DNA of 64,000 bases from Tubulanus polymorphus (lineage: Eukaryota > Animalia > Nemertea): positions 6,374,275-6,438,274 of the forward strand of contig NC_134032.1 in NCBI RefSeq assembly GCF_964204645.1, written 5' to 3'. The position numbers and the translations under genes were made by a program. A model generated the notes under the pieces. That model saw only the letters and a program-made list of their open reading frames with translations, made no database searches and was not told the origin of the DNA. This document shows, piece after piece, positions 12,099 to 50,185 of this stretch (positions within the stretch are counted from its first letter, which is position 1; each line of letters starts with the position of its first letter).

Positions 12099-15000
12099 TA
12101 TCTTGTCACTTGGTAAAAGTTTTTAAAAACCCTTAGGGCCTACTGGATTCAGATCCACAGTTCTAGATTCAGTTCTACTAGTTTCAGAATCTAGTCCAAC
12201 AGTACTGGACCAAGATCCTCAGTTCATTCATCGGTTCTTGACCCAGTTCCACAATTCTGGACCAAGTCAGGGGCCGATCCGGGAAAATTGGAAGATCCAA
12301 GGTACAGAAAGGAAAAGGCATTTCTTGGATAAAGCGGTAATGTCGAAGGCCACTAGCAGGCCACCCTCAGTGTTAAGATATTTTTGTAAAATACATCCTA
12401 AAAGTTTAAAAGATACAGATTCTGAGAGTATTAGTGTCAAACTTGCTGATTTTAAGCTTGCCAACCTGACTTTACGAACAGGGCAACCTCAGTGGGAAAG
12501 CAGGGGTCCGGACCCCTGAGACCACCCAAAAAATCTGCCCCTGCCCAGTTCCACACTTCTGGAACACTTAGGCTTAGTCTTTACTGAGCTAGGCGACCTG
12601 ATGTCCTCTCGACTCAAGTGAAGTTGAAATAGACATAGGCCTATAGGTCTACGGTAATCTAATTGCTCAAAATTCCCAGAATTTAAGTTCCAGGGGTTAT
12701 ATTCGAGCTCAGGCTATATTATACCACAGGGGCTGGTAAACTAGCTTGGATTTTTATTTCCGGGTTGATGATATCTCGCGAGAATGGCTCTAAATTTAAA
12801 TTGCAAATTAATTTGAAATATCACAGCAATATCTTGCATTGATTGTTTATTTATCCACTAGGCCTATCAAGTTCCGATAAACAATTGGTCGTTAAGGATC
12901 ATTATCAGGCGGTCACAAGGCCTTACTATATAAAAATAACAAGGGATAAAATGGCCTCGCTGTTTGCTGTTGACCATATTTCAATTTCAATTTATTGTAA
13001 GGGTTAAATTAAATTAAAGAAAGGGTTAAATTATTTTTGTTTTGCGATTTTTTGTTGTTTTTCATTCATTAATTTAACAACATCGTTATTGAAATTGTAC
13101 TCACAATTCTTCAATCAAATCAACACACATCATTTGCTTAAAAACTAAGTTTAATTACGCGCGTAGGCCTATAGACACTAATCATCATCCTTCACGATTC
13201 ATGAATAAATCAACACACACATCACTTTAGAAATATATAGATAAGATTATTTACACGATAATGAGAATAGGCCTAAGAAACTCACTAAGTTATAAAATAA
13301 AGCCCGCAGGATTGCAGCCGCATTTTTGTGCGGCCATGGCTGCATTTCATACCAGTGGCCTTGGCCAGCTTTCATACCCTACCTATAAACAATACATAGG
13401 CCTAGGCCTATAGGCCTAGAGTTGTTTTTTTGTTGTGTTGGGGCCCGCGACTATATAGTCTAGTACCTAGCCATTGTTCCTCAAACAATCCTCTAGGGCC
13501 AAAGAGCACATGTAAGGTATTTTGGTCCCTCATTTTGAGGGACGAGGCTATGAGCGTCTACTTCACCCCTTAAAACACTCAACTTACCTCAAACTGACTG
13601 TTCTGTATTCAGATGGAAGTTAACTTTTGTTTGAGCATAAATTTGTAATCCTAAGCTTTTGACGATCATAGTAGGCCTAACTCAAAACTTTTAGACTAGT
13701 CGCCTCAAAAGATAGTTAGTTGAAGTGAAGCAACAAAACAAATATGGCGGCTTTTCGTGTTGCACGATGGCAGGGTAAATTACAGATTCGGACTTTAACT
13801 TGGACTGACATTGATGCTAATGCAGATATTATCCTTGCTTCAAATTCTTAAGGTAGGCCTAGAATTCGCCAAAATCAATGCATTTTATCAACTAAAAATG
13901 ACATTTAAAGTAATTTTAGAGAGACAAATTGAATTTTTACATTTTATTAATCTAGTCCGTATTGGAAATCCCGATTGTGACAATCAATTCAAATCAAATC
14001 AATAAATTCTCTGGTTCCCGATTTAAATCATCAAAAATAATAGGGCTATAATAAAACATGTTTTCAAAGTCAACAAGGTAACTGATTAATTTATTTGAGT
14101 ACAAAGGTTTGATTTGACACTGAAATCAGTTGTTACATTGCAAAAAACAGGAGATAACCTCTTGACAATTTGGCGTCTGACGTTGAAGGAACCGTCGTAA
14201 CAAGGACTGGTATTCAGACTAGCGACTATACTACTTTACCGGTACACTTCGTCCTCACAAACTGACTCTTCGTCATGATTGTCATGTGTGTAGCGTTTAA
14301 CTACACAAATTCGGTCATAGGCCTACTTAGTTAGTTACCTAATCGTTGGTGGTAAGCTTTTTATAATCGGATGAGCTTATACCAACATAAAGGGATGACA
14401 AGGGCCAAAACACGGTTGAAAAAAGTAACACTTCAAAAATATACTTTATATTCACTTCAGTCCACAATTAATGGCTTAATTCACAAACTAACACAGGTAC
14501 CTTTCGAAATAATCCAATTTTATGTATGTTTCGAGTGATTAATTAACATAATTTTGAGAAATTAATTAATTTCTCCACAAATTTCGCCATTGGCCGCCAT
14601 TTCTCTGTATTGCACATGTGGCATGAAAAGACAAGGGGACCTACAAGGATTTATATAAAACTCCAAGACGAAACGACAATTTTAATTATTGATGGTTTTC
14701 CAACTTATATTTCAAAACTTCGTGTTTTCTATAATAAATAATGAAATAATAAATTCTGGAAAAAGAAAAATGTGAATAAGTGTTGATTTCTTAATTTTTT
14801 TCAATTTCGTTGTTTCGCCTCGTTAGTTTGTGCTGTTGTCCTGGCCTCAGTCCACAGGTGCCAGCACCTCCAGTAATTTTCAAAATGGCAGCTGTTGACT
14901 CGACGGAAATTAACTCTCACTTTACGGCCGATTTGCACATGGATTAAGATCGTCAGGTGAGGTGTTATAGGTATCAGACAAACTACGAATCTGTTGTGCG

Positions 15001-16423
15001 TCGATTACAACAAAAATTAGACGGATATCTTAAGAGACAATGAAATGCCAGGCAAATTACTCGTCAGTCAAATTGGCTGACGAAGATTGCATACAAAAAT
15101 GTCCTTCCCATTCCTGAAAGTGGTTTGTGAAAATATCCGATCATGAAACTAAACCACAGTCACAGACAGGTTACTGACTCAGGCCTACTGTGTATGTACT
15201 GAGTTGATGACTCTTCTGTTAGTTAGGCTAATTATGACTTAGGCTAGAAGAGTCATCGACTGCTGTCTGTCCGGTCCACAAAAAAACTGAAATCAATTTT
15301 TTAATCCTTTTAAAATTGCTTTTTAGCATGTTTATTTTTTTGCGCATTTTTTGTTTTATTTGATTCAGATTAAGTCGTGTCGTGACACTCTGACAGTACC
15401 GTGCGAACTCAAAACGGTCTCATCGCCTAGTACACATCCAGAAAATAAGTTACCCGAACTCGAACATACCTATTTAGTGCCTACTTACATCGAATTAAGC
15501 GTCGTTTATTCCGAATTTAATCCGTACTCTGCAGCCTACTCCGCGATCGATCAGCTGTGGGCAGGTGAGTGAGTAGTGGAGTGAATTCAACAAACGGGCG
15601 TTTCATGAAGAGTTTGTGACCACTGTTTTAGAATCACCGCAAAACGCAAACTTCTCCAATTCAATTCAAACATTATTGAGCATCAATTTTGATTGAGAAG
15701 TGAAAATCTAAATTGCTATAGGCCTAATCGTAATCATCAGCCTTTTTCCACAATACAATTCTTTGCGTTTTTTGCTTCTTTTTTGCCTCTCACCCTTTGT
15801 ATATTCTTGTTATTTTTCTTTCATGAACTTGGACTTATGTTTGAGGCGACGGCCCGTCTTGCGTAGCTTCGTTAATTATGCGCCATGCGTGACCAGGTGC
15901 GTGGATGCAAACGCGATAGTGGGCAGTTGCCAGTTGGTACGATTTGGTTGGGTAGGCCCGCATAGATTCTATTTGCGTTTTGTACTAATTAGTACGCAAT
16001 GGTCGTAGTTTGGATATTAAATTTCATCTGAAAATGTTGCTGTTCAGCATTTTCCAACATAGTAGAACGATCCTATTAATTATGATGGTGCGCGAAGAAG
16101 GCGGGCTCCTCCATTCCTTTGATGTGGTAAAACGTTTGTGTAGTCAGTTCATTTGGGAAGTCATGGCAACTCATACTCATCTGTACCTTTAGCCTATTTG
16201 GTAAATTTTTGGGGGTCAGCTAATGCGCCAATTGGACTTGACAACGTAGCAAAAGGCTTGTGCCACAAGTGCTACTTTTTGTAGTCCCAAGTTTTATAAC
16301 ATTTTAATACAGTTTATATTAATCATATTTTATTTTATGATATCGTACAGTATAAAGTCCTTTATTAAGCCCGGCGGTGCACACGTGTACAATTTTTGCC
16401 GAGTAACGAGACGAGTTACTATA

Positions 16424-16739
16424 AGTAATAGGGATAATAGGCTTTCAGGTTAAAGGTTGAACGGGCGGGTGAGTAAAAAATGAAAAACATAAAAATAATA
16501 ACAATAGCGAAACTCATAAAAATGAAAAATAAATTCTCACACGCTCGAATTTATTTTTCATTTTTATGAGTTTCACTCCTAATTCAAGTAGAAATTGTTA
16601 TTATTTTCATGTTTTTCATTTTTTACTCACCCGCCCGTTCAACCTTTAACCTGAAAGCCTATTATCCCTATTACTCTTAAAATATTCATATAAATGAATA
16701 AAATATAAATCATTGAACTTCTAAAATCAATTTTAATAA
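16424..16739 (+). repeat. Left TIR; 16424-16675 is itself a near-perfect palindrome
   Basis: Reverse complement of 31908-32239. Internal foldback around loop TCACACGCTC. The outer arm has AGC where the inner arm implies 19 bp. Confidence 0.95.
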
Positions 16740-16761
16740 TTTAAAAAATTACTACTTAGTT

Positions 16762-16962
16762 ATGACTGAATTACAAAAATGGGTTGGATATGCTTCATTT
16801 CAATTAGGATCGGTTATGACATTAATTTCTACTGGCGTCATAACATTTTCGAACATCAAGCCTATGGAATGTAAATCAGGCAAGAACGAAACAGATGTAC
16901 TACAACCAAACGTCGAAACAGAAAATGAATCAGAACAAAAATTAACTAAGATAAATGAGTGA
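16762..16962 (+). CDS. Small hypothetical protein with N-terminal hydrophobic segment (element gene)
   Basis: 66-aa ORF starting just inside the left TIR and overlapping the next start by 8 bp. Hydrophobic stretch WVGYASFQLGSVMTLISTGVITF. Confidence 0.5.
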   Translation: MTELQKWVGYASFQLGSVMTLISTGVITFSNIKPMECKSGKNETDVLQPNVETENESEQKLTKINE

Positions 16963-17326
16963 TGGAGTTAAGAAAAAGGCTAGATCCGAGAAACAAATTA
17001 AATGGGCAAGAGAATTAGGAAAAAGATCTTCAGAATCAAAAAAAGCTAAGAAAATGAAATTAACTGATATAAATGAATCACAGACTTTATCTGATATTGA
17101 TTCAAATAATAATCCATCTAATTCTTCTAATGCTGGAAGTAATTATAAATTATATATTACAATTGGATTAGTAACAGTTATTATATTATCCGGTGTAATA
17201 TATAAATCAAAATTCAAATCTGATGATAAAGATGATTCCAATGATAATCGGAAACCTATCATACCAGAAAATAAGTCAAATCATAAAGTCATTGAAACTA
17301 AATCTAAATTATTATTAATGGATTAA
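16955..17326 (+). CDS. Hypothetical basic protein with one predicted transmembrane helix
   Basis: 123 aa, TAAATG start, Lys/Arg-rich N-terminus, TM segment LYITIGLVTVIILSGVIY. Confidence 0.75.
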   Translation: MSDGVKKKARSEKQIKWARELGKRSSESKKAKKMKLTDINESQTLSDIDSNNNPSNSSNAGSNYKLYITIGLVTVIILSGVIYKSKFKSDDKDDSNDNRKPIIPENKSNHKVIETKSKLLLMD

Positions 17327-17332
17327 AATAGA

Positions 17333-18445
17333 ATGAAAAAAGAACAATATTTAAGAGATTTATATTATAACCCAGAAAGTGAAGTATCATATTCTAACGT
17401 TTCAGAATTATGGAATAAAATTAAATCTGATAATGGCAATGGTGCCGTACGGCACCCACACGGTGACATAAAATATAGTGAATTAAAATCATGGTTACAA
17501 AATCAACCAACATATCAAATCCACAAGAAAATGGATAAAACTTATTTAACAAGAAAAGTTATGGTTTCATATATCGATCAACAATGGCAAGCAGATTTAA
17601 TTGACATGAAGAACTTAGAGGAATACAACAAAGGATATTTCTGGATACTGAATGTTATAGACATATTCAGTCGATACGCATGGTCAATTCCAATCAAAAA
17701 TAAAACTGGAATAGAAGTTACAAATGCTTTTAAATCTATATTTAAAGAAGCTATTCCAGATAAGATACAATTTGATGAAGGTAAGGAATTTTATAACAAA
17801 CATTTTAAAAAACTATTATCTGATAACGATGTAGATTATTTTTCAACACACTCAGATAAAAAAGCATCTATTATAGAAAGATTTAATAAAACATTGAAAA
17901 CTAGAATGTGGAAATATTTTACTGCTAATGAAACATATAAATATATCAATGTGTTAGATGATTTAGTGAAAGGTTATAATAATTCTAAACATAGTTCTAT
18001 GAATATGAAACCTATACAAGCTAGAAAAGAAGATAATTCAGAAATAGTTTGGAATAATTTATATGGCGCGTTTGTTGCACATGATTTCGGAGAACCTAAA
18101 TTCAAAATAGGACAACACGTAAGAATATCTAAATATAGAAAAACCTTTTATAAAGGTTATACCCCAAATTTTACAGAAGAAATATTCAAGATTAAAAAGA
18201 TAATATTAACTAAACCTTTTGTTTATAAATTAGAAGATTTAAAAGATGAAGAAATATTAGGTTATTTCTATGAACAAGAATTATCACTTGTACCAAATCC
18301 AGATGAAATAGAATACAAAATAGAAAAAGTATTGAAAACAAAAACTCTTAAAGGAAAAAAGTATTCTTTGGTGAAATATAAAGGATATGATGATAAATTT
18401 AATGAATGGATTTTATCTAGTAAAATTAAAAGAATAAATGAATAA
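17333..18445 (+). CDS. Retroviral-type (rve, DDE) integrase with C-terminal chromodomain
   Basis: Catalytic motifs WQADL, QFDEGKEF and IIERFNKTLK. Chromo-like YKIEKVL...LVKYKGYDDKFNEWI. Intact 370-aa ORF. Confidence 0.96.
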   Translation: MKKEQYLRDLYYNPESEVSYSNVSELWNKIKSDNGNGAVRHPHGDIKYSELKSWLQNQPTYQIHKKMDKTYLTRKVMVSYIDQQWQADLIDMKNLEEYNKGYFWILNVIDIFSRYAWSIPIKNKTGIEVTNAFKSIFKEAIPDKIQFDEGKEFYNKHFKKLLSDNDVDYFSTHSDKKASIIERFNKTLKTRMWKYFTANETYKYINVLDDLVKGYNNSKHSSMNMKPIQARKEDNSEIVWNNLYGAFVAHDFGEPKFKIGQHVRISKYRKTFYKGYTPNFTEEIFKIKKIILTKPFVYKLEDLKDEEILGYFYEQELSLVPNPDEIEYKIEKVLKTKTLKGKKYSLVKYKGYDDKFNEWILSSKIKRINE

Positions 18446-19050
18446 AGATTTATTTATATTTGAACCGCATAATATGTTAATAACTGGAGTAACCAATTGT
18501 GGTAAAACACATTTCATATTAGACTTGTTAGAAACTATTTATAAGAATCATTTTGATAATATAATATTATTCTGTCCTACTTATGAAATGAATAAAACAT
18601 ATAATAGAGATATAGTTAAGATGAAAAAGTTTATTATATTAAATCCTAAAACAGTAAAAGAAAATTTAGATAATTGTATTAAAATAGCAATTGATACTTA
18701 TAAAGGATCAAATACATTATTCATTATAGATGATTGCGCAAATTTACATGATTCAAAAGTTAGAGAAAGTGAGTTATGTTATCTAGCTTTCTCCGGGAGA
18801 CATTTTGGGATAACAACTTGGGTTTTAAAGCAAAAATATAATTCAATTGTTAAAGACTTTAGAGAAAACATTAGATTTCTAGTTTTATTTTATAACAAAA
18901 ATAAAAAAATCTATGCAACAATCATTGGAAGAAAATCAAATTATACCTACTGAATTACACGATGAATATATAAATAAATTAAAGAATAATAAAGGTTCAA
19001 AATTATTACTGAGACTACAATTTCCCTATGAATATAAATTTATAAAATAA
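18438..19050 (+). pseudogene. A32/FtsK-like genome packaging ATPase, frameshifted near the C-terminus
   Basis: Walker A GVTNCGKT, Walker B FIIDD, SGRH motif. After the A-run near 18903-18909 another frame continues KSMQQSLEEN...YKFIK* to 19050. Confidence 0.9.
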
Positions 19051-19074
19051 AATTTATAATTTGGAATATTATAG

Positions 19075-19467
19075 AAACTAATTTATATATCTATGTACTA
19101 GACGTACGAGTAAGAAAGTAAGATTCTTGCCAAGAAAGTAAGAAAGTAAGAATCTTGGTAAGAATTCTTACGTACGTCTAGTATATAGATATATAAATTA
19201 GTTTTATAATAATTATTCTAAATTTAAATTATAAAAATTATATGTTTTCTCTTAATAAAAATAAAAATAGATTATATTATAACTATTTCTATACTTAGAT
19301 TAATAATTTTATGTTTTTAATTTTTATGAAAACTAAATTATATATCTATGTACTAGACGTACGAGTAAGAAAGTAAGATTCTTGCCAAGAAAGTAAGATT
19401 TCTTGGATTCTTGGATTCTTACCAAGATTCTTACGTACGTCTAGTATAAAGTTATATAAATTAGTTT
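19075..19467. terminator. Two directly repeated ~130-bp palindromes between convergent gene blocks (candidate bidirectional 3'-end signal)
   Basis: Units 19075-19204 and 19330-19467, each with arms AAACTA...CTAGACGTACG / CGTACGTCTAG...TAGTTT. The structure is directly visible; the terminator role is inferred from position. Confidence 0.5.
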
Positions 19468-19475
19468 TATAATAA

Positions 19476-20646
19476 TTATTCTAATTTTGTTTCTAATATA
19501 TTTATAAAATCATCTCTGTTTATATCTAATTCACTAAAAGTCTTAGGTAGATTTATTAATTTTAATTGAGCCATCTTAACATAATTATTAGTAGGTATAT
19601 TAGCTTTTTCTCTTAATTTTTCTAAGTATTCATCAAAATCATCATAATCAAAATCAAAATGATATCCAAAATTAGTTATCAGATAATTTAAATCTATTTT
19701 TCTTAAATATAATAATTTATATATTTGTTTAGGATTATTTTCTGCATAGGCTAATAATTTATCAAATAACAACTTATAGAATATATAATATTGGTTAGTT
19801 TTAGGATTGAAATATTTGATATATTTCTCTGGGTTATTTAACAATGGTATCATACTCACCATTTTATAAACATTAATTAGATGTAACTTTGATTTATAAT
19901 GAGTATTTTCATCAACAGGTTCAATTTTCTTATTACAATATTGACACATTTTATTTCTTTCTATTTCTTCTAATTTCTTTTCATTTTCGATATGCGCTTG
20001 AGATTTTTTATGCTTAGAAAAATTACTTTTAGAAATATCTAAATTACAAATGTTACAATGTTTTTTAGAATCATCAATTGTTTCATTATCATTAGTTTCA
20101 ATTGTATCAACATTATCTGTTATATTCTCTATGGTATCATTTGTTTCAATTGTATTAACATTATCTGTTATATTATCTATAGTATCATTTGTTTTGAATT
20201 GTATTAACATTATCTATGATATTATCTATTATATTATTATCAGATATATTATTATCATTATTATTCTTTTCTTTTTCTATATGTTTATTTGATTTCTTAT
20301 GTGATGTCCAATTTTTATATGATATATATTTCTTACATACATCACAATATTTTTCATTTGTCTTTTTGGTTTTGATATCAGGTTCAATCTTATCATTATT
20401 AGATGTAGTAGGTATTACTGTAGTAGGTATTACTGTAGTAGGTATTACATTATTATCAATTACATTACTTAATTTATCAACAACTTCACTTTTATTATTA
20501 TCGATTTCTATTAGTTTAGTTTTATAAATTTTGAAAATAGGATCAAATATCAAAGCTATATTACAAGGTATTACATAATATAAACCATCATTATTTTCAT
20601 GTGTATCGATGTATGGAATATGTTTATATACTTTACCACCTTCCAT
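19476..20646 (-). pseudogene. Protein with three U1/matrin-type C2H2 zinc fingers and internal repeats, split by a frameshift near 20190-20210
   Basis: ORFs 20185-20646 and 19476-20210 overlap. Fingers CDVC..HKKSNKH, CNIC..HKKSQAH and CQYC..HYKSKLH. VIPTT x3, and 48-bp repeats spanning the frameshift. Confidence 0.8.
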
Positions 20647-20678
20647 TTGATATAAGATTTTTTATTAAAGTTAAAATT

Positions 20679-21926
20679 TTAATACATAACACTATCTAAT
20701 TGTGAATTTACAATATTTAATTGCGCGTCAGATATAATATAAATGTGCATTTTAAAATTTTTGATTCCTTTATTTTTTGTCATGAATAATTGTATTCCAT
20801 CTTTAGTGTTCTGTAGTTTTTTTCCAGAACCATGTAATGAATTATCCTCTGTTGTTCTAAAATCTAACCATAATGCATATTTATTACCGGTATAATAATC
20901 AATTTGATTAATGTTACAATTTTCAAATGATTTTACTTTTTCATTCATAAAATGTTTTCTAATTTCTGGCCATTGATCAATCATTCTCATTCCTTGACAA
21001 AATATTTTATTTGCTATTCCTTCGATAGTTATTTCTACTTTTGTTATTTCAGGATTATAATAATTATCAACATTTATTGCGCCATTAGTATATGTTGCAA
21101 TGGTAAAAAATATTAATATGCCTTTAATAGATCTTCTTGGGAAGTTAATATTCTCATTAATTATTTCATCATTTGCATTAATAGTTACGGTTTTAAATTT
21201 ATCAATATAATCATATAATAATGAAAATCCTTGATTGTATTTAGTTTGAATTATACTTGAAATATTTTCATCAGTTACTGTGTCATATTCTAAACATATA
21301 TTTGATAATTTATAACTCATATCTTTAACAACGCTAGATAATACAATTTCATTTACAGGAGCAAAAGTTATCTCAAATATAACGTCTTCTTGAATTGCGT
21401 ATTTATATAAAGGTGCATTATTATTTATCAATTCAAAGTTTAATGGAATTTTATATTTGCTTCCATATATACTGTTTATCAATTTATCTACAGCATTAGT
21501 TAATATTGCGCTATTAGCTTCTGATCTTAATTTATTTTGGTTTTCTGATTGGATTCCTTGAAATATCATATTATTTCTATTTTCTTTAGTTAACCATAAA
21601 TCTTTATAATGCATAAATAAATTATAATCATCCAATGAGAAAACTGTTTCTGGACCAATCTTTATTGTTAACTTTTTAATCAAATATCTTCCAACATTAT
21701 CAACAACATAATTATTATTATTACCGATTACTTTTATATCGGCCGATAAATAAATACTATTTGGAACATAAAAAGTATTTTTTGTTAATCTAGGAATTCT
21801 AACATATAAAGTTTCATCGGGATTAATATTTGAAGGGTTATGAGTAATTATACGATGTGATCTTTCTGCTTTAATAGCATTAGATATTCTATGATTCTTA
21901 GAAGGATTGATATAACTCCCACTCAT
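20679..21926 (-). CDS. Major capsid protein (double jelly-roll, hexon-like), intact
   Basis: 415 aa. Pattern THNPS.I....L.VRIP, NVGRYLIKKL, YKDLW, YKIPL, ICLEYD matches my recollection of invertebrate Polinton capsids. Size and position fit. Confidence 0.8.
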   Translation of the reverse strand: MSGSYINPSKNHRISNAIKAERSHRIITHNPSNINPDETLYVRIPRLTKNTFYVPNSIYLSADIKVIGNNNNYVVDNVGRYLIKKLTIKIGPETVFSLDDYNLFMHYKDLWLTKENRNNMIFQGIQSENQNKLRSEANSAILTNAVDKLINSIYGSKYKIPLNFELINNNAPLYKYAIQEDVIFEITFAPVNEIVLSSVVKDMSYKLSNICLEYDTVTDENISSIIQTKYNQGFSLLYDYIDKFKTVTINANDEIINENINFPRRSIKGILIFFTIATYTNGAINVDNYYNPEITKVEITIEGIANKIFCQGMRMIDQWPEIRKHFMNEKVKSFENCNINQIDYYTGNKYALWLDFRTTEDNSLHGSGKKLQNTKDGIQLFMTKNKGIKNFKMHIYIISDAQLNIVNSQLDSVMY

Positions 21927-21945
21927 TTATTTAACAAAAAATTAA

Positions 21946-23386
21946 TTATTTATTTTTTGATATCATGTTTACTAATCCAAAAATAATAGCACTTACAACA
22001 GTTATTAAAAATAAAATAATATGTTCAGCAGCAAAGTTAATAATGTTTCCTGCAGATTTCAATATAAAACCAACAATTGAAGTAATAACTCCAGGTAAAG
22101 CTGCAGCAGATTTTTTAGATAGTTCCCATAAATATTTTGCTAATTTCTTTAAACCATCTTTAACTTTATCTTGTATAGAATGATCACCTGGGGGTTTATC
22201 TGGTTTATTGGGAGTGGGAGTAGGAGTAGATTTTAAAGCATTTGATATAGCTAAACCAATTGTTGTGAATAACATAGTTACAGCTGTTAGAATTGAAAGA
22301 ACTGTTATTCCTTCTAATTTAAATAATAACTTTATTCTATCTTTCAATGATATTTTAGAATCTGGTTTTATCAACAAATCTTTAAAAATAACTTTTAATC
22401 TATTAATATTATAATCATATGATTTTAATAATAATTTAATTTCTTCTTTTTGTAATTCTATGTTATATTCTAAATCATCAATTTCTTTTTCTAAATATGC
22501 ATTTCTTTTTTTAAATTCAATTTCTTCAATAACTTTATTATCTCTATCTAATTTTAATTGTTCTATTTCTTTATTTTTATCAGTTAATTCTTTTTCTAAA
22601 GTTCTAATTTTAAAATCTCTTATACTTTTATCATGCGCAATTTTATCAGATGCATTTCTTATACTAATAATTTCTCTAATTGCTTTATCAGAAAATATAT
22701 CTAAATCTTCTAATTCTTGATCTGTTGCATCAAGTAATCCATTCGGTAAAAGTTTTTCAATTGGAACTTTATTTGATTTAAGTTTACTATTTTTGGAAGT
22801 TTTATTCTGTTCAGAAGTTGTTTCTGTTTCTGATTTCTTTTTGATTATTTCAAATAATTCATTAATTCTTTGTTTAAATACTTCTCTATTTTTATTCATT
22901 TCTGTTTGTGTTAAATCTTCTACTATATAATTAATATTACTTATTCTCTTAATTCTATCTGGATCTAATTTTCTCAAAGTTAATTTTGTTATTATTTTTT
23001 TTTTTATAAGTGATATCAATATAATAATCACCTTTCAAACGATAATAACATTTACCATTATCTAAAAATTTTAATTGATCTGCTAAAGGTCCAACGTCTT
23101 CATCATTTATGTTAAGTTTAGAATTTTCAATTAAATCTTCTAATTTAGCTATTTCGTTTAAATTATCTAAATCTTGTTTTACTAAATATGGGTCTAAATT
23201 TTCAGGATATAATTTTGATTCTGCATTTTTAATATAATCATGCATATTTAAATTATTATTATATTCTGGCTCATTACCGTCATTATCAATATTAGTTTCT
23301 GCATCATTATAATCATCATCAATATATCCTTCATTATTAATTCCCATGCCTTCCATTTCATAATCTTCTCCACCTTCTACATCCAT
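21946..23386 (-). pseudogene. Acidic/coiled-coil protein with C-terminal membrane helices, split by a frameshift in an 11-nt homopolymer (22995-23005)
   Basis: ORFs 22955-23386 and 21946-23031 overlap at the homopolymer. Coiled-coil-like region followed by three hydrophobic segments and a PTPTP linker. Confidence 0.8.
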
Positions 23387-23402
23387 TTACATAATAAAAA
23401 AA

Positions 23403-24842
23403 TTAAAATTTAAAATATAATATTCCTCCGATTACAATTCCTATACAAGTTATAGCTAATTTAGTATTTTCATGGGATTTATTATCATCATTTAGTTTAA
23501 TTATATCATGTTGAATAATATCAGTTTTAATATCACCGTGTGGGTGCCGTAAGGCACCATTTTCTGTAGTATTATAATCTTTTATTTTAGAATCATTATT
23601 TAATTTAATATTCTTAGTTTTAGTTTCAGTTGATTGAATGTGTTTTTTATTTTTTTCACCTTCCATTAATTTTGGAGCAGTAATAATCTTTTTATTTATA
23701 TCATTCAATCCAAAAGAATTATTTATTGTTGCAGTTTTAATTAGATTATTATAACCAATTATGTTTCCCATCTTTAATACTAAATCATTAGAAATAATTA
23801 ATAGATTAGGGCCTATACAATAATTAAGCCTTACATGAGATTTATCTAGATAATTTTGATATCTTATAATGTTTTCTGGAGTCGATCTATTTTTATCATT
23901 ATGAATTGAATCTTCAAATAAAACTTTAAATTGTTTCTGTGTATCAAATGATGTATTCAAATTTCCAATTATTGGTGATCTTGTTTCAACTTGCGCACCT
24001 AAAATACATATCAAATAAGTTCTAATAGATTGATTTATTCTTTGTATACCTGATTTAGTAAAACCTTCACTATTTTCTAAAATAAAATAAACCCAACCAT
24101 TATTGTTTTCTTGTTTTAAATTATCATAAAATTTCGGTAATTTATTGAAATTTAATGTTTCTAAATCCTTAGTTTCTATTTTACCATAACCTAATTTATT
24201 ATTATAAATATTATAAAAGCTATTGTAAATATTATAAAATCTATTAAAAGATGGTATGGGAAGTGCGCAATATGCTGCAACATTTTCAGGGCAAGGAAGT
24301 GATCTTATTGTTCCAATTTTTGTTCTAAAATCAGAATTATTTATATCTATATTAAATTCATTGCAAATTTTATAAAACTTTGATAAATTAATATTATTAT
24401 CTAATTCTTTAAAATATCTTGATCCTGGTAAAGCGCACTCTAATTCATTTAATATTATTCTGATTTGAAAGTATGTATGAAATCTAAATAAACTTTGAAT
24501 TAGTTTATATTTAGAATTATTCAAATGATCATTCCAACTTATTCCACATCCTGTTGTTGCACAATAAACAGCAAAATTTAATTGGTTCTGCCAATACTTC
24601 ATATTAGATTTTAATAACCATTGTTTTTCATCTTTCAATTTTTTAAAATTAATTAAATATACATGAAATATATTTTCCATCTTTGCATTAAAATTATTAG
24701 TTTCAGTAACATAAATTTCTAAATTAGTTAATGAATCTAAAACTTCATTTCTATATGTAATATCTTTATTAAAATCTATTGCTGGAATATTATATTTAAT
24801 TGATTTATTATATTGGAAAGCTTTTGAAAAACTATCTACCAT
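23403..24842 (-). CDS. Hypothetical element protein with C-terminal membrane anchor
   Basis: Intact 479-aa ORF with motifs WQNQLNFAVYCATTGCG, FRFHTYFQIR and SIRTYLICILGAQ. Ends LAITCIGIVIGGILYFKF. Confidence 0.85.
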   Translation of the reverse strand: MVDSFSKAFQYNKSIKYNIPAIDFNKDITYRNEVLDSLTNLEIYVTETNNFNAKMENIFHVYLINFKKLKDEKQWLLKSNMKYWQNQLNFAVYCATTGCGISWNDHLNNSKYKLIQSLFRFHTYFQIRIILNELECALPGSRYFKELDNNINLSKFYKICNEFNIDINNSDFRTKIGTIRSLPCPENVAAYCALPIPSFNRFYNIYNSFYNIYNNKLGYGKIETKDLETLNFNKLPKFYDNLKQENNNGWVYFILENSEGFTKSGIQRINQSIRTYLICILGAQVETRSPIIGNLNTSFDTQKQFKVLFEDSIHNDKNRSTPENIIRYQNYLDKSHVRLNYCIGPNLLIISNDLVLKMGNIIGYNNLIKTATINNSFGLNDINKKIITAPKLMEGEKNKKHIQSTETKTKNIKLNNDSKIKDYNTTENGALRHPHGDIKTDIIQHDIIKLNDDNKSHENTKLAITCIGIVIGGILYFKF

Positions 24843-24887
24843 TTATTCAATAAAAAAATTAATAATTTATTAATTCTTTTAATAATT

Positions 24888-25286
24888 TATCTTGTTCTAT
24901 GACCATTTAAACTTATGATATAATCTAGTGTGTTCTTTAATTTATTAATTTCTTTTATATTAGTTTTAATTTTTTCTTTATTACTTTTTATATTTAATTT
25001 TGAACTTATACCGGTTAAAACACTTGAACTTAATCCTAACACACCAATTGATATAGCTAAAGGTGTTAATGGGCTGAATATCTTTGTTAATATAATCCAT
25101 ATAGTTTTGCCTCTTTTCTCTATATTCTTCTGCAGCTTTATTATATTTCTTTAACGCTAAGTTATGTCTTCTTTGTTCTCCTAATGAACTATTTTTATCA
25201 ATATGTTTAAATAAATATCCACCACCAGTAAATGCTAAAGCGTTAACAATTGCCGATCCTATAATAGTTATAATTGCAGAAGCCAT
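24888..25286 (-). pseudogene. Probable deletion fusion of two small membrane-protein genes
   Basis: N-terminal part MASAIITIIGSAIVNALAFTGGGYLF...EQRRHNLAL runs to ~25085. A different frame then gives IFSPLTPLAISIGVLGLSSSVLTGISSKL...LDYIISLNG. Confidence 0.6.
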
Positions 25287-25310
25287 TTATTTAGTAAAAA
25301 AATTATGCAT

Positions 25311-25532
25311 TTATATGGGAGGAATATATTTTTGTTTTTCCAAATAATCAATAGTTAAATTAGATAAAGTAACTGCTAATGTTAATTTTAAAATATCATT
25401 CATATCAAATCTATCAACATTAACACTTCCCATTTTGAATACTTTTTTTAATACCATTGAATAACCAACAGTTCCAACTGATAGTAATGCGCCATTATAT
25501 AATCCAGTTATTATCCACTTATTATCACTCAT
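25311..25532 (-). CDS. Small hydrophobic protein, putative virion/membrane component
   Basis: 73 aa, two hydrophobic helices, carries the shared upstream motif. Confidence 0.75.
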   Translation of the reverse strand: MSDNKWIITGLYNGALLSVGTVGYSMVLKKVFKMGSVNVDRFDMNDILKLTLAVTLSNLTIDYLEKQKYIPPI

Positions 25533-25874
25533 TTATTTATCAAAAAAATTACTATCATCAAAATATTTAGTTATCTTAGTGATGATTAATTCGACATTTA
25601 TTTCATTACTACTTTTATGATTATCATATATTTTGGATAATATGTTTTTGATACCTTCAATAATTCCATCTTCATTTAATTCATAATATTCTAAAGGTGA
25701 TTTAATTAAATCAATTACTTTTTCTATATTATAATTTTCTTTATCAATCATTGATGCATTGTTAAATGATTTACTTTTTATATCAGTAATTACATCATTT
25801 AGTTTAATTCTCATTTCTTTACCATGTTTAAAATCAAACCCAAAACATATACTCGGTCCAACAGTTATATTCAT
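25533..25874 (-). CDS. Hypothetical protein
   Basis: 113 aa. Its stop abuts the next start (TAAATG), and it carries the shared upstream motif. Confidence 0.7.
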   Translation of the reverse strand: MNITVGPSICFGFDFKHGKEMRIKLNDVITDIKSKSFNNASMIDKENYNIEKVIDLIKSPLEYYELNEDGIIEGIKNILSKIYDNHKSSNEINVELIITKITKYFDDSNFFDK

Positions 25875-25891
25875 TTATATAGTGAAAAAAA

Positions 25892-26400
25892 TTACTCTCT
25901 ACATCTTACAACTAATTCATAAATTACGGGGAAATTATTTAAATCAATTAAGTATCCATTATGATTTCTAATTTCTAATCTAAAATTATTAAAACGAGGA
26001 ATGCATGGTTTGAAATCACATTCTGTTAAATTATAATTTATTTGCGTTCCAAATTCTTTAACATTACCTTTTACTCTAATTCTTTAATTCTTTAACTACT
26101 ACCTAATTTGTGCCAGGCTTTTCTATTAATTTCTTGTGCTAATGTATCTAAATTATATAACCCCGGTTTTAAGTATATATAGACCCATTCATTTTTATTT
26201 TTATTAAAAACTAAAAAGGCTCTATGTTCAATAGTTTTATTCGATATATTGTAAAAAGAATTACATAAACTTATATTTACTAATTTTAAATCAACACAAT
26301 TCTTAAATTCTCTATCTAATTGTACTAATAAATTATGTGATTTATAATTTGTAAGTTTTCTAGAATCTACAAATATTCTGTATTCTTTTAATTCTACCAT
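25892..26400 (-). pseudogene. Minor capsid protein (penton-like single jelly-roll) with internal lesion near 26085-26100
   Basis: N-terminus IFVDS...NSFYNIS...LKPGLYN..LAQEIN. In another frame, C-terminus FRLEIRNHNGYLIDLNNFPVIYELVV..* ends at 25892. Both ends look like penton termini, but only ~165 codons remain. Confidence 0.65.
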
Positions 26401-26405
26401 TTATT

Positions 26406-26768
26406 TTACATATTTAATTCGAAATCTATTTCATGGTGCCCTTTTTCATTCTTACCTTTGTATACGAAATAGAAATCTCCAGAACATAATTCTTCTAAAT
26501 CTTCACTTGATAATCTATGAAATCTATCCGGTAAATATGTTCTGAATTGATATGTATTTCCTTTTAATCCTTCATATTTAAAGTGTATAACTAATTTATC
26601 TCCATAGTTATTAGTAACTGTAACAATATTTGTAATTAGATATTTCTTATGGATTATTAATTCTGTTAACTTTTTGAATTTATAATCTACAGATTTTACA
26701 TTTGTGATATCTTTAATTCTATCTAGAAATAATTTGTTGTTCTCACTGTGCGCTTGTTTACTCTCCAT
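26406..26768 (-). CDS. Small protein next to pPolB, possibly an OB-fold ssDNA-binding protein
   Basis: 120-aa intact ORF. Beta-strand pattern FKKLTEL..KYLI..YGDKLVI..YLPDRF..FVYKG. The function is inference only. Confidence 0.55.
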   Translation of the reverse strand: MESKQAHSENNKLFLDRIKDITNVKSVDYKFKKLTELIIHKKYLITNIVTVTNNYGDKLVIHFKYEGLKGNTYQFRTYLPDRFHRLSSEDLEELCSGDFYFVYKGKNEKGHHEIDFELNM

Positions 26769-26797
26769 TTTAATAACATATTTTTATCAAAATTTGA

Positions 26798-29700
26798 TTA
26801 ACACGTTAGAATTCTTTTCATTATCTCGTTCTCTTTTGTTTCTTCTCTTTTAAATCTTAAGTATTCATCTAAATTACAACCATAAGCAACTGTATGAATT
26901 CCATCATCTAAAATATATCTTTTATCATCAAATGGGTTTAGACTTACCTTTTCAATTTCTTCAACATATTGTTCATGATCTTCAGATCTTAAACTTCTCA
27001 TCTTATGTTTTCTAACTTCTTCATTGAATATACAATTGATGTAATCTTTGAAATGAATATTCTTTTCTACTACACTTTTGGTTATTCCTTTTAACTTTTT
27101 AGCTTCATGTTCTTTAGTTTTATATGAATACATTTTAGATCTAATACCAATGAATTCAATCATTTCTTCACCACCTAATTCATCTTTGAATTTACCAGGA
27201 ACTTTTTTATTATCATTGCTAAACAATTCATGATTTTTAGGATAGTTACTAAAATCAAAATGATGTTTTAATGTTTTTAAATCATCTGTTATGTTATCAG
27301 TTTTTATCTTTAATATGTAAGAATCTGTATTTTTTATGATTAATGGAAATCCACAATTAAATGTACCATCTTCAGTTGTTAAATCATAAACACATTCTGT
27401 AGGATTGGATATTTCTAATAAATCAGTAGCTTCTTCAGTTAGTTCATTTTCTACATGCGTTAATTGAAATACATTTAGTTTATCTTTTCTAATATTAACT
27501 AACATATTAAATCCTAATGAATTGCATAATATATTTAATCCTGATATAGCAACTTTTCCTTTTTGTGTCAAAGATATAGTTTTATGTTTTGTATAGTTTT
27601 TTGAACCATCTGCAGCATAAAATCCAATGAAGAACCATTTTCTTAAATCATATTTTGCATTTAATACATAATCTGGAACTATCTTTTCTTTTGTTGAAGT
27701 ATTACGTTTCACTATTGCATGAATATAGAATTCATCATTATATTTAATTGCAAAATCTTTAGTATTATTTACATGTATTCTATAAACTGCTGATGATTTC
27801 ATAACATCCATGATTCTAAATGTTTTATGTGAATAAACTTCTTCACAGTATTTCTTAATTCTTTCTAATAATTTCAAATCTTGATTGCATAAATACCAAC
27901 AATATTTAGTTCCACTAACATATTTATACACACCTGCTGAACCATCTCCCATAAAAAATCCTTTGATAAAATATTCTTTTTCTTCCAATGTTTCGGGTTC
28001 TATATTATAAATATTATCAATTATTTTATCAAATGACATATGATTCATTCTTGGGTAAAATCTGTTGTGTAATAATTCATCTCCAATTTTTATATCAGTT
28101 GGTTTTATTTCATCACCATTTTGTTTAATTAAACTATGATCTTCAGTAACATCAACAAATCCTAATTTAGTTCTAACTCTATAGATTTTCTTATTCGTTT
28201 TATGTCTAATTATATTCTTTAATTTCGCCCATCCATTTTTTGTCCAAACATCCATTAATCCATTTATTTGTATTAATTCTTTTTCACCATACGAAATATA
28301 AAGTTCATTTTGTTTTGGAATTATTTCTGAAATTCTTCTAATTAACATTTGATTATTATATTTTAAAAATATTGGGGTGTCAGCTGTTACAGAATCAAAA
28401 TATGATATTTCTATATGTTTTTCTCCAAAAAGTGGTTGTAATACATTATAATAGAATTCATACATTAGTAATTTTGATAATTCTAAAACTGAAGCGCCAA
28501 CATAGATTGGTTTATTAAATTTATTGATGTTCTTCTCATCTTAACTGCAGCTAAATTTTCATCAAATATTCTGTTACCAATGAACTTAGGATATGATTAT
28601 AAATGCCTTATCCTTTTACCATTACTGACTAACTCAATATCATTTCTATTTCTAATATTTTCACAAGTCTTACCATAGAATGCATTATTCATTAACTTGA
28701 AGAAATCTTTCTCGAAATCAGTTTTAGCTTTAGTTCTCTGTTTGGTGTTAAAATCTATATATTTTTCTAACCACTTAGATTGACTAAATGAAATATATCT
28801 ATGTACTTTTTTTAGAATCATTCCTTGATTCAAATAAAACTTTAACATTCTATAATGTACTACATAATTATATTTATCTTCTTGAGTTACCATTAACTTT
28901 TCTGTATGAATATGATTTTCAGGTTTAATTCTTTTTTGATAACTTGATAATTCTTCATGAGTTACAGTTTTATGTTCGGGGCAGTAAGCTAGATTTCTAG
29001 ATTTAAATTTAATATGTTCAGGATATTCTAAATCTACAACAAAGAAGTAACCAGTATCTGAATCATCTGCAATATCTAGAATTCTTTTCTTCCAATCAAA
29101 TTTATCATCATTTTCATTCTGTAAAACTTCACTTATTTCAAATACTCCATAAGGTTGTGGTTCCATCATTGCCCAACCATACAAATTATTTGCATCTATA
29201 TATAATAACTTATATCCGGGGTTATCATTTACATTGAAATATCTATCACCTAATACACCTGAAACTCCTCCTCTTATAGATTTTTCAAATAATAATAATT
29301 GATCTATATTTGTTAACAAATCCATTTTTATATCTGTAAATTTCAATCAACAATCCCATGTTAATCCTGGTGATGAATAACAATGACAAGGATCAATATT
29401 AAAATATTTTAGGTTTACATCTCTAAACCTTTCGAATATATCGGTTAATAATAATACATCTGATTTTAGATATAAATCTACTAATTGCCCATGATTTTCT
29501 ATTTTGAAATGATTCCAAATATTCAATGTTCTATTATAGACTTCATCTTTAACATATTCGTTTTTTAATTCATCATAGAATTGTTCTTTCAATAATTCAG
29601 TTATTTTAAAATCATTATGATTTTTATAGAAAGAATATGGAATTGCGCCTTTATATCTCATTAATTTAAAATCATCAATATTTGGGTAATATTCTTTTAA

Positions 29701-31891
29701 TATCTTTAATTCATCATCAACTAATGATTTTGATAAGTTATCTAATGAACGATTTAAAAATCTATATGAATCTATAAATCTTAAACACCCAAATTGGAAT
29801 GATATATAATTCTCAGATGTTTTAGCTAACATTCTAAATTTATAAGTTGGTATTTTATCTTTTGATCTATTTGAATTTAATATTTCTATTTCATTATTGA
29901 TTTCTTCTATTTTATAGCATAACTGTTTGATGAATAAATGTGCATCATATCCTGATAGATTATGAAATATAACTGCTACAAAATTAATTTTCTTAGCTTG
30001 TAAGTTACAATTCTCATGTGCAGCGCCTCTAAACTTTCCATTCAAATGATCATGGTCTCTTACTTTTTTATCTTTATAATTAAATATCTTTTCACAATAA
30101 TAACATTTACCTGCAAACGCAAATTCTTCTTTATCTTCTTCTGTCATAATTATTTCTTTATTTGTATTCAATAATTTACTAAATCTTATTTCATATTCAA
30201 TTAATAAGTCACAAAAATGATTGATAACATTTTCATTTCTATAATTATAATATTCACTTTCAATTAGTTCTGGATAATCAGATTTAATATATGACCCGAA
30301 AGCCGCAGCTGATTGATGAATCTTTTTAATAGTATTTGTTTTTGGTGGTTCATCTGAAAAATCATTTTCATTAGAATTTAATTTCTTTCTTTTATAATAT
30401 ATTTCTTTTCTATCTTGATCAGTTAATTCTTTATTTAATGATTCAAAATCTCCATATATTACAAATGGTACTTTATTTTTGTAATCATATTTTTTGAATT
30501 CTAATATTTTATCTTTTTCATTTGGTAAATCTAATTTACAATAATCATGATTTTCACATAATTGTTTATGATTTAATAACGTACTTTCATTACTGAATCT
30601 ATGTAAACATTTTCTACATAGATATATCTTATTATGGTGATCACTTTCTGTTCTAAAAAATAAATCTATTTGTTTAATCCACATATAATGATTCTCATAA
30701 TATAATATATCTATAACATCGTTTGAATCATAATCTTTTGATAGATATAAAGGTTCTAATGTATAATGTTTTATATTGTTACCTTTTGTATTTGGTAATT
30801 TGATTAAATCAAATACATTTATTTTTATATTATTATCTCTTTCTATTTTTGGGATGTTTTTAATTATAACAGGATACTTATCTATCTTATAATTATTTTC
30901 AAATAGTTTATAATTTGTTAATCTATAAGTATGTTTATTATAATCTTCAACTGAGTGTAAGCAACTTATTATAGCCCATAGAAAACATTTATCATCTTCA
31001 TTTTGTACATTTATTACAGCATTAGTTTTAAATGGTAGTTTAATATAACTTGTTCCATTTATACTATCATCTTTATAATAAGATAAATTATTTTCATCAA
31101 TTGGTATCGATTTAGTTAACTTATTATTTTTTGTGTTATAAACATGTAAAGTCATAAATATTATCTCATCAAATATTAAACCAGATCCTTCAAAATATTT
31201 CTCTTCTATTTTAGTTTTTACTTCATTATAACATTTATCTAATTTATCATCTATATGTTGTTTAGATATAATATGTTGTGAATGAGAATGGTTTATCTTC
31301 AGATTTTATAAACTTTACTTTAACTGATATACTAATTTTAGGATATTCAACATCAGTAATTATTTTTATAATATTTTTCATATTTTCTAAATGTTTTTTA
31401 TTTTCTTCTAATGTTTTTCCTTTATGAAATTTAAACTCGATAGCTGCTGGACCAATATCACTTTTAAATGCTTTGGTTATCTCTATATCTTTTTTATTAT
31501 CTAATGAATTAATATATTTTCTTACATCTTCCATGTATGATCTTTTATTGTTTAATTTATTTTTTATGCTTTTAATTGTCTTCTGTTTCTTATCATTATC
31601 TTTATCAAAATAATCTTCACCTAAAATATCATTATTCTTATTTCTAATATGACTTATAGATTTTAAATGTTCTTTATAATATCTTTTATCACTGAATGAT
31701 TGATTACATGTATCACATTTGTATGTTTCTTTTTCATTCTTTAATTCATCTAATTTAGATTCTAATTTATCATCTTTATTTTCTAGTTTCAATTTATTCT
31801 CTAAATGTGTTTTAGTTTTATTGTGTCTTGCTTTTTGGGATTTATCTATATTGATTTTACATGTTGGACAGTAGTACTTATTTGCTTCCAT
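26798..31891 (-). pseudogene. Protein-primed family B DNA polymerase (pPolB) polyprotein with intein; 2 premature stops and 2 frameshifts
   Basis: Exo motifs YGDFES, FHNLSGYD and YLKSD. Pol motifs YIDANNLYG, KLMNNAFYGK, YFD|TDS and KLKGI. Lesions: frameshift ~31265-31290, TGA 29347-29349, TAA 28597-28599, frameshift ~28521. Confidence 0.95.
27329..28393 (-). mobile_element. Intein with LAGLIDADG homing endonuclease (355 aa) inserted in pPolB motif C
   Basis: Block A SVTADTP, block B DVTEDH, LAGLIDADG blocks IKGFFMGDG and FIGFYAADG, block F VYDLTTEDG, terminal KN then +1 Thr. Removing it restores YFDTDS. Confidence 0.95.
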
Positions 31892-31907
31892 TTTAATACT
31901 AAATTTT

Positions 31908-32239
31908 TTATTAAAATTGATTTTAGAAGTTCAATGATTTATATTTTATTCATATATATGATTATTTTAAGAGTAATAGGGGTAATGGGCTTTCAAGCTA
32001 AAGGTTGAACGGGCGGGTGAGTAAAAAATGAATAACATGAAAATAATAACAATTTCTACTTGAATTAGGAGTGAAACTCATAAAAATGAAAAATAAATTC
32101 GAGCGTGCGAGAATTTATTTTTCATTTTTATGAGTTTCACTCCTAATTCAAGTAGAAATTGTTATTATTTTTATGTTTTTCATTTTTTACGAGCTCGACC
32201 GTTCGACCTTTGGCCTGAAAGCCTATTATCCCTATTACT
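31908..32239 (-). repeat. Right TIR; 31972-32239 is itself a near-perfect palindrome
   Basis: Reverse complement of the left TIR. Foldback around loop GAGCGTGCGA (32101-32110). Confidence 0.95.
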
Positions 32240-32448
32240 ACTATAGGTTTTTATTTGACGTACCTTACGAGCTTTCGCTTCTAATATAGATACTTCATCA
32301 GGTGAATAGTGCATGAGACTCATTCACCTGATTGAGTGAATGAGACTCATTCACCTGATGAACGAGCTTCTATACATTAGAAGCGAAAGCTCGTGCGTCA
32401 AATAAATAGTTAACCTATAGGCCTATAGTACTACCCGTCTCGTTACTC
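32240..32448. repeat. Larger part of a palindromic MITE-like element interrupted by the Polinton (left stub 16401-16423)
   Basis: GAGTAACGAGACG (16401) is the reverse complement of CGTCTCGTTACTC (ends 32448). Inner arms TATTTGACG..ACGAGCTTTCGCTTCTAAT / ATTAGAAGCGAAAGCTCGT..CGTCAAATA. Confidence 0.8.
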
Positions 32449-33138
32449 ATTTTAAACAAGGTTAACACGGCTACCGTACTCTACGAATTTTTGCCGAGTA
32501 GTCGCCGGCATGAGTGGTTAGAATGGGAGGAATGCGCTCTTTTAGTTGAGTTACATGTACGGTAACTTGTAACATGATATATGATGGCGACCAATTTAGC
32601 AACTGTTGAGCTATCAATCGCTTATAATGTCGTCCGTGTGCTACAACTGCGGGGCCCGGGAGACGGACAAGCGATAATATCTTTCCTGGCAAACGCCTAG
32701 TGACTTTTCAAGATGGCCACGCTTACAGCTTCGACTGTGCCGTTGGAGGTCCACGCGATAATTATTCGCTCTCTCATTGGCTAGTTGATGAGTCGTTTGT
32801 CGCTCGTCTCCAGCTCTCCCGCACACGGGAAACTCCCTCGGTGAGCAATTTCTCGGCGACGAGCAATTTTCCGTCGCCCAATATCAAACATGTTTGATAT
32901 TGGTCAATAGGCCTATCAAACATGTCTGATATTGGGCGACACGGAGCTATCATTTCGACGAGCAATCGCTGCCTCCCGTTGCCGCAGACGAGTGATTTTT
33001 ATCGACGCTGAGCAAATCGTTATTAAATACCGGTATGATATTCTCATTGAATTTGAGTTAGTGCAAATTTGCTCTCTGAAAAAATGTCGGCGTTAAGTGA
33101 GCAGTGACATTGGAAAGAATGCCGGACGGGCTTTGACC

Positions 33139-38873: not shown

Positions 38874-39017
38874 TTTAGTGACTAGACTTCGTGCCGACTC
38901 ATCGATATTTATATTCTCTTTTGCGGACGTTTCGAACCAATCGAGGAAACCTTTTTCTTTACAATAATCATCCATGTGTTGTGCATTGTTCACTAGACCT
39001 TCTTTAGCTTGATCACA
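38874..39017 (-). CDS. RAB32: Rab32/38 exon
   Basis: CDQAKEG...WFETSAKENINIDESARSLVTK, completing NKCD and including ETSAK. CAG/GTAAG boundaries. Confidence 0.95.
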
Positions 39018-40895: not shown

Positions 40896-41077
40896 TTTAT
40901 TTGCGAGTAACACGCACGGAACTGGACTACCATCTGGAAGCTGTACTTTGCTGTCAAGGTCGTTCTTCCACTTCTGAACGGCCTCGAACGTCGACGCTCG
41001 AGTAACGTCGAACACAATGAATGCGCCAACTGCTTCTTTATAGTAAACACGCGTCATATTGCCGAAACGCTCCTGGC
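40896..41077 (-). CDS. RAB32: Rab32/38 exon
   Basis: QERFGNMTRVYYKEAVGAFIVFDVTR...CVLLANK. Phase matches the previous exon; GTAAG donor. Confidence 0.95.
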
Positions 41078-41114
41078 CTGTAAAAAAAGAAAAAACAGCG
41101 TTCCATGAAGCAGG

Positions 41115-43440: not shown

Positions 43441-43651
43441 AGCCTATGGCTGGCCTAAAAACGTGTGCCTTTGTCATAGAGGAAAGAAAGAAGCAACGTG
43501 GCAGTCTAGTGATGCCATCAGGTTTCGAATAACTGATGACGGGGAACATGGCAGAGTCTTGCGATGCCATCCGACGTGCGAATCCCGGCTGCAGGAGTTA
43601 AAGGCGTTCTAAATTCATGAGCCCGCTATCTCAAAATTGGAAATATTTATA

Positions 43652-50106: not shown

Positions 50107-50185
50107 CTGCAATGTCCCATAGCTGTAACCGTACAACTGTGTCTGCGTCCCAGTTTATCACTTTCAGGGCAAAATCAACACCGAT
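50107..50185 (-). CDS. RAB32: Rab32/38 exon (switch regions)
   Basis: IGVDFALKVINWDADTVVRLQLWDIAG. WDIAG is typical of the Rab32/38/29 subfamily. AG/GT boundaries, ends in phase 1. Confidence 0.93.

Follow-up and report, generated by a model that had tools for sequence, protein, structure and literature searches.

Poxvirus-type start signals and a giant-virus-type polymerase intein in an integrated Polinton-type element of Tubulanus polymorphus

A 64,000-nucleotide stretch of the nemertean Tubulanus polymorphus (NC_134032.1, 6,374,275 to 6,438,274; the window, in whose coordinates all positions are given) contains a Polinton-type element of 15,816 bp (16424-32239), which begins with AGTAATAG and ends with CTATTACT. 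On the plus strand, an exact 6-bp target-site duplication, ACTATA, lies on its left (16418-16423) and right (32240-32245). The element inserted into one arm of an inverted repeat belonging to the host, and the opposite arm (about 32420-32450) has kept a single ACTATA and serves as an internal empty-site control; the stretch 32246-32450 is a small MITE-like (miniature inverted-repeat transposable element-like) host element, the arm of which received the Polinton. An X1 contig carries the identical left flank and continues 30 nt into the element, one nucleotide below the threshold used for calling a bridge. The duplication, the clean end repeats, and the gene set show this to be a real integrated element, as the original prediction had concluded from the duplication; an rve integrase, terminal inverted repeats, AG...CT ends, and the 6-bp duplication are the hallmarks of Polintons found here. 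The element is also, as predicted, far more AT-rich than its host (23.3% GC compared with 37.8% in the flanks).

Both termini fold back on themselves. The left terminal repeat (16424-16675) is self-palindromic and contains matches to the poxvirus early-promoter core (AAAAATGAAAA), and the right one (31972-32239) is a palindrome with 129-nt arms and a 10-nt loop. The fold-back extends over 252 nt on the left and 268 nt on the right with z about -28, and equal stability was reached in 0 of 200 shuffles. The predicted hairpin termini are borne out in the sense of palindromic duplex ends, as distinct from covalently closed hairpins. Such ends may allow fold-back of the free genome. Flip/flop ends were rejected, as strand-switching reads at 16507 and 16580 are explained by a 16-nt difference between the end repeats.

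Copies were counted by read depth only, using about 12% of a run of raw DNA reads from the same species (X6). Relative to the unique flank, depth was 72-109x over the integrase and ATPase, 133-151x over the capsid gene, and 84-112x over the polymerase gene, the baseline coming from 90% mapping and the capsid and polymerase values from 85% mapping. Most of the X6 reads mapped to the element showed 90-99% likeness, and C>T and G>A ranked among the most frequent changes. These values describe a diverse family numbering roughly 100 copies, in a depth that pools integrated and free ones. At about 25081 and 26065 many X6 reads depart from the window sequence, indicating extra sequence there in other copies. 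In X1, the summed contig depth of 16424-19030 relative to a neighbouring host repeat was about 2, and in X6 and X2 about 0.3-0.5; the higher X1 value could reflect free copies in the sample or an artefact. Contig depth of this kind is no copy number.

The plus-strand genes begin with a gene remnant (16762-16962; about 206 aa in the relative L001), followed by a 123-aa conserved open reading frame (ORF) with a predicted membrane segment and a TAAATG start (16955-17326), an rve integrase with a chromodomain in an open frame (17333-18445; PF00665, E 9e-10; PF00385), and an A32-type packaging ATPase that has a TAAATG start and a frameshift in its 3' part (18438-19050; PF04665). Two long AT-rich hairpins (19045-19506) separate these genes from a converging minus-strand block. 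The block includes a variable zinc-finger/repeat gene in two frames (19476-20646), which we regard as accessory because its read depth is mostly low, the double jelly-roll major capsid protein in an open frame (20679-21926), a coiled-coil/membrane protein divided into two ORFs here and forming one 485-aa ORF in L001 (21946-23386), and a conserved 479-aa protein with no Atlas match (23403-24842). Three small conserved ORFs follow (24887-25874, with starts at 25286, 25532, and 25874), the first of them broken. The last three, all also on the minus strand, are a probable minor capsid protein that has lost internal sequence (25892-26400), a 120-aa conserved ORF (26406-26768), and a protein-primed DNA polymerase B (pPolB; 26798-31891), which carries zinc fingers at its N terminus and an inserted endonuclease VII and is interrupted four times. 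The major capsid, coiled-coil/membrane, and 479-aa genes and the three small ORFs each have a T-run followed by TAAATG at the start; the zinc-finger/repeat gene, the 120-aa ORF, and the polymerase have starts of a second, A-run class.

The 415-aa capsid ORF was modelled as a double jelly roll (AlphaFold2, pLDDT 84.8), and the best Foldseek matches of the model were capsids of PBCV-1 (Paramecium bursaria chlorella virus 1), EhV (Emiliania huxleyi virus), an iridovirus, and mavirus. The identity of the probable minor capsid protein is suggested by its intact L001 homologue, which resembles unnamed 230-310-aa viral proteins and DUF5901. The polymerase is 64-88% identical to a full-length homologue (P0280), and its relative P0290 matches PF03175. 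Compared with intact homologues, the window copy shows four breaks in the polymerase (two frameshifts and two in-frame stops), the ATPase frameshift, three further damaged ORFs, and the deletion within the gene for the probable minor capsid protein. A Pfam scan of 19 element ORFs found no RNA polymerase, and a pox RNA-polymerase subunit was likewise undetected among them. No protease family was found in these ORFs or in the scanned accessory ORFs of relatives, a very divergent one being possible in the 479-aa ORF. A deoxynucleoside kinase, of a type often found in large DNA viruses, is encoded by close relatives (L001 10343-10981; P0285) and missing from the window copy. The integrase (17438-17473) and the 479-aa gene (23526-23561) share an in-frame, GC-rich repeat of 36 bp that encodes the same short peptide in both, and reads of other copies connect it to 17081 in a third gene; it is absent from all related loci examined. 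This pattern suggests a small mobile in-frame insertion.

The start signals of the element resemble those of poxviruses. TAAATG was present at 9 of 14 hand-picked gene starts compared with 23 of the 378 remaining ATGs in sense orientation (p about 8e-8). The fuller motif, T6-N5-9-TAAATG, occurs at six sites on the minus strand of the element, all of them ORF starts of the capsid block, at none on the plus strand, and at one site in 2 x 48 kb of flanks. The second class, TTT(A/G)ATAAAAA...AAATG, precedes the ORFs starting at 31891, 26768, and 20646 (the polymerase and two other genes). The poxvirus early core AAAANTGAAAA has seven matches in the end repeats, two sites being doubled by the palindromes, and two more in the 48 kb of flanking sequence. 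These three signal types fit the published late, intermediate, and early poxvirus consensus sequences, respectively (PMC11980589; PMC5294985). The class of start motif tracks gene function as it does in poxviruses, with late-type starts in the capsid block and A-run starts at the polymerase and its neighbours. A T at positions -9 and -10 before TAAAT was found in 95% and 72% of 40 starts compared with 39% and 37% at internal TAAATG, a peak that matches the vaccinia late promoter as published, in which the conserved T is the 10th base (PMC11980589), the peak here being at -9. Two other readings of the motif were rejected: as a splice acceptor, since AG occurred in 0 of 36 T-run starts, and as stop-start packing, which accounted for only 4 of 69 starts.

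In order to place the motif, we compared 16 related metagenome loci (capsids 49-75% identical) in which ORFs were called mechanically. TAAATG opened 55 of their 65 ORFs compared with 19 of 309 in 30 other Polinton or polinton-like virus (PLV) loci, controls of unidentified host and lifestyle that are not mutually independent and speak solely against a general occurrence of the motif. The window element gave 8 of 17 under the same calling with broken fragments counted, and six more distant capsid relatives gave 0 of 17. The motif was kept at 36-44% GC (7 of 9 starts; background 0 of 102), and an AT-rich control, L069 (22% GC), had it at 1 of 10 starts. Some control loci carry start motifs of their own. 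The pox-type start motif belongs to this clade and is no common property of Polintons. A capsid sister group (L014, L017, and L019; 43-48%) lacks TAAATG, has a different start motif, and is depleted of CpG and AATAAA, a possible lifestyle switch within the lineage. Capsid relatives were absent from three scans of viral contigs and from a phage collection, and genome contigs yielded none, then three; viral contigs held neither relatives of the integrase nor a match to a 20-mer of the terminal inverted repeat. The relatives P0046 (capsid) and P0291 (polymerase) are annotated as Bartonella on short contigs, labels that most likely reflect animal-host contamination of the assemblies.

A 355-aa intein interrupts motif C of the polymerase (YFD|S...N|TDS; 27329-28393, minus strand), in an open frame with two LAGLIDADG motifs (PF14890, PF14528). 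Its class 1 signature is complete and in frame at the conserved site (S1, block B TEDH, block F VYDLTT, and the end ...IIKN|T), and the penultimate Lys is shared with many viral relatives. From these motifs, self-splicing and homing cleavage are predicted. Among the best 150 relatives in a library of 1.84 billion, both junctions were of giant-virus type in 103, and one had a Polinton extein. A second search gave 46 matches, 14 of which have exteins matching a Polinton polymerase without an intein. The intein was present in only 1 of 120 polymerase homologues, the 119 empty ones including the three closest, and in 0 of 30 control loci; the closest Polinton polymerases, 81-85% identical in the C-extein, are intein-free. 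Intein-bearing P0409 pairs with empty P0294 at 81% identity. Five Polinton inteins formed a single clade (support 100/100) in an IQ-TREE analysis of 41 rows chosen from 116. The second search also yielded two clusters, of 41 and 55 members, situated on long contigs. P0402, P0403, and P0417 with their clusters stand for damaged polymerase copies with the intein, dozens in number and on contigs reaching 825 kb, probably a second eukaryotic genome invaded by the intein.

The intein is polymorphic in T. polymorphus. We found 94 X6 reads, at 53 starts, that skip exactly 1,065 bp (27329-28393) and 71 more that skip nearly the same stretch; the exact intein-free joint is present also in X1 and X3 contigs, and X6 depth over the intein is 20-43% of that over the flanking polymerase gene. 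The exact skipping and the reduced depth show that alleles with and without the intein occur together in the host species. A survey states that inteins are absent from metazoan genomes (Green et al., PMC5784728), and endonuclease inserts in pPolB have been suggested to derive from intein invasions (Krupovic et al., PMC11161782). No intein of this kind is described in the available text of Jeong et al. (bioRxiv 2023.08.22.554363), Starrett et al. (PMC8502044), Stephens et al., PMC12220804, and bioRxiv 2026.10.13.758929, and the literature searched, with subscription papers and most supplements outside its scope, holds no account of TAAATG promoters or a true intein in Polintons.

Other traits of the element have no discriminating value. 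The two hairpins between the converging gene blocks are strong (z -11.5 and -8 to -9), and hairpins of unrelated sequence lie 3' of the ATPase in L001, L003, L004, and L005. Mimiviruses place a hairpin at each gene end; such a rule was not found here, four other convergent junctions being without a hairpin. The hairpins probably restrict read-through between the blocks. It is established that Polintons in general lack an RNA polymerase and introns. The AATAAA signal is not purged from the coding strands of the element (observed/expected 0.89-1.01; 58 sense-strand copies in 13.8 kb), and in the sister set without TAAATG (6.5 kb) the ratio was 0.56, with CpG at 0.37. A codon-shuffle test of AATAAA for nuclear as opposed to cytoplasmic life was dropped, the controls behaving like the element.

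The original prediction had taken such traits as independent signs of one helper virus. The intein of giant-virus type, the late motif with its second class, the hairpins between convergent genes, and the missing RNA polymerase gene were all found, and the start motif and the intein retain their weight as traits not general to Polintons, so that both withstood the refuting condition of that prediction, generality among autonomous nuclear Polintons. Not every trait is informative or independent: the lack of RNA polymerase and introns is shared by Polintons at large, AATAAA is the same in controls, and TAAATG relatives reach 44% GC. Nor need the traits converge on one helper, since the promoters are pox-like while 25 intein-bearing viral loci have TAAATG at 0-33% of ORF starts, compared with 78-91% in the clade of the element. 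Dependence on a helper as such is better supported than before by the clade-specific motif.

Among known systems, Mavericks/Polintons (adintoviruses; PMC8502044) share with the element pPolB, the rve integrase, an A32/FtsK-type ATPase, a double jelly-roll capsid, terminal repeats, a 6-bp duplication, and an animal host. Unlike them, the element has pox-type starts, an intein, and self-palindromic ends, and no adenain protease was detected in it; its capsid has no Pfam match, falls in a separate set, and is 35-39% identical to a bivalve-annotated protein. With the adintovirus test on the protease negative, the element is Polinton-type in a broad sense only. In comparison with the virophages mavirus and Sputnik, again no protease was detected in it, and the mavirus capsid ranks 38th or lower by fold with 9-11% identity; because of these capsid and protease results, we regard the element as working like a virophage and not as a member of the family. 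The entomopoxvirus PLVs AHEV_PLV1/2, CBEV_PLV1, and Ca_PLV1 (Barth et al., PMC11296320) are tied to an invertebrate poxvirus, occur in entomopoxvirus occlusion bodies, and include one integrated in a beetle genome. By description, all four differ in encoding a cysteine protease, two having no detected integrase and two tyrosine recombinases; promoters and inteins go unmentioned in the main text of that paper. The endogenous mavirus-like elements (EMALEs) of Cafeteria (PMC10945749) share the rve integrase, pPolB, many AT-rich chromosomal copies, and helper-type promoter motifs, but have a protist host, a mimivirid helper and motif, a virophage-type capsid, and demonstrated reactivation and protection. 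The motif-C inteins of Nucleocytoviricota PolB occupy the same site (YxD|S...N|TDS) with a Ser start, an Asn end, and a LAGLIDADG domain at 30-44% identity; that of the element differs in its setting, the protein-primed polymerase encoded by an integrated element, and in being polymorphic among copies in an animal species.

We think it fairly probable that a pox-like cytoplasmic virus supplies both the RNA polymerase that transcribes the family and the factory in which the family replicates, integration being the latent state, and give about the same moderate credence to a Polinton-type element that is probably virophage-like in lifestyle and outside the virophage family. The argument for a pox-like helper is the promoter match, the same one by which helper-matching promoters predict reactivation in Cafeteria EMALEs (PMC10945749; bioRxiv 2025.10.09.676808). 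The family would lie silent in the nucleus and be transcribed and copied in the cytoplasmic factory of the helper, like mavirus with its giant virus. To the helper polymerase, the T-run with TAAATG would be a late promoter, used for the capsid gene and other presumed virion genes, and the A-run class would serve as an intermediate-type one for the polymerase gene and its neighbours; the polymerase of the element would copy the genome, the ATPase would fill the capsid, and the integrase would place copies in the germline. A single transfer from the PolB of a large DNA virus, at the equivalent motif-C site, would have brought the intein into this Polinton lineage; homing into empty alleles, in places where genomes replicate side by side, would account for its later spread.

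Several observations weigh against this reading. The window copy, broken in several genes, is unable to replicate on its own genes; no helper virus was found in the collections searched, and the element is known here from DNA alone. AATAAA is near 1 also in the 30 control loci, which speak only to generality, and the avoidance of T-runs goes along with avoidance of A-runs and is seen in several controls. An Imitervirales-like contig, L028, has T-runs before TAAATG starts in 5 of 17. The intein, moreover, has no clear origin in a pox-like virus: it was sister to two asfarvirus-like PolB inteins, P0149 and P0206 (FastTree 0.976; IQ-TREE 87/88), whose best solved-structure match is 8ywg, which we take to be the African swine fever virus polymerase. 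An asfarvirus origin was set aside as not robust, since a third tree was unresolved and the C-terminal block is common to eight giant-virus inteins, one of them from the Imitervirales family IM_01 (assigned from a supplement row of PMC8575486).

The damage also admits relic wiring, in which ancestors parasitised a pox-like virus and the present copies are a fossil burst or products of nuclear transposition with no living helper. At least eight breaks in the window copy, the 90-99% likeness of most mapped reads, the frequent C>T and G>A changes in them, and the helper not found in the collections searched speak for it, yet promoters are intact at 6 of 6 late-class genes, relatives at 50-75% capsid identity retain the motif and open frames, and the end repeats and target duplication are still clean, so that we consider it unlikely. 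Quite unlikely, in our estimate, is a virophage-like parasite of another cytoplasmic large DNA virus, asfarvirus-like or of the Megaviricetes, with a T-run and TAAATG late promoter. The intein family resides in such viruses, L028 has T-run starts, and long intergenic hairpins resemble mimivirid 3' ends; set against this are the low TAAATG share in intein-bearing viral loci, hairpins that are not present at each gene end, and terminal-repeat motifs that fit the poxvirus early core. An autonomous nuclear Polinton, its motif used by host Pol II or an element factor or reflecting an AT-biased translation context, is improbable, as the motif is kept at 41% GC yet missing from AT-rich controls such as L069, a T at -3 is, by established poxvirus biology, unfavourable to initiation where no poly(A) leader takes its place, 58 sense-strand AATAAA stand in 13.8 kb, and an intein from cytoplasmic viruses requires shared replication space. 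Integration does require the nucleus, several conserved ORFs are of unassigned function, and expression of other animal Polintons is reported with no helper known (PMC11131425).

Beyond the element, the window contains a high-copy host repeat (14176-15285; about 300x unique depth in X6) and a host Rab32/38 gene on the minus strand (38800-54300), with four exons identified near 54.2, 50.2, 41.0, and 38.9 kb and introns of 2-9 kb. The few homologues that bear names include bivalve and insect ones, in keeping with an invertebrate host. A further open frame of 852 aa on the minus strand (60602-63160) contains tandem repeats and a part rich in Q and P; it has no Pfam match and probably represents a long exon of the host.

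Two matters about animal Polintons have long been open: the way they are transcribed and whether they form particles. If the late promoter is of poxvirus type, an unseen pox-like virus of the host is to be expected, as are non-templated 5' poly(A) leaders at TAAAT and activity in poxvirus-infected cells. Entomopoxvirus-associated PLVs are already known; the literature searched describes no intein in a Polinton polymerase. We propose only tentatively the wider reading that an invertebrate germline clade of Polintons comprises provirophages of undiscovered pox-like viruses, with staged promoters, a giant-virus-derived homing intein still spreading, and possibly a role as inherited defence. The intein is a candidate homing intein in an animal germline, in contrast to the survey reporting none (PMC5784728), and would record gene flow from giant-virus polymerases to Polintons.

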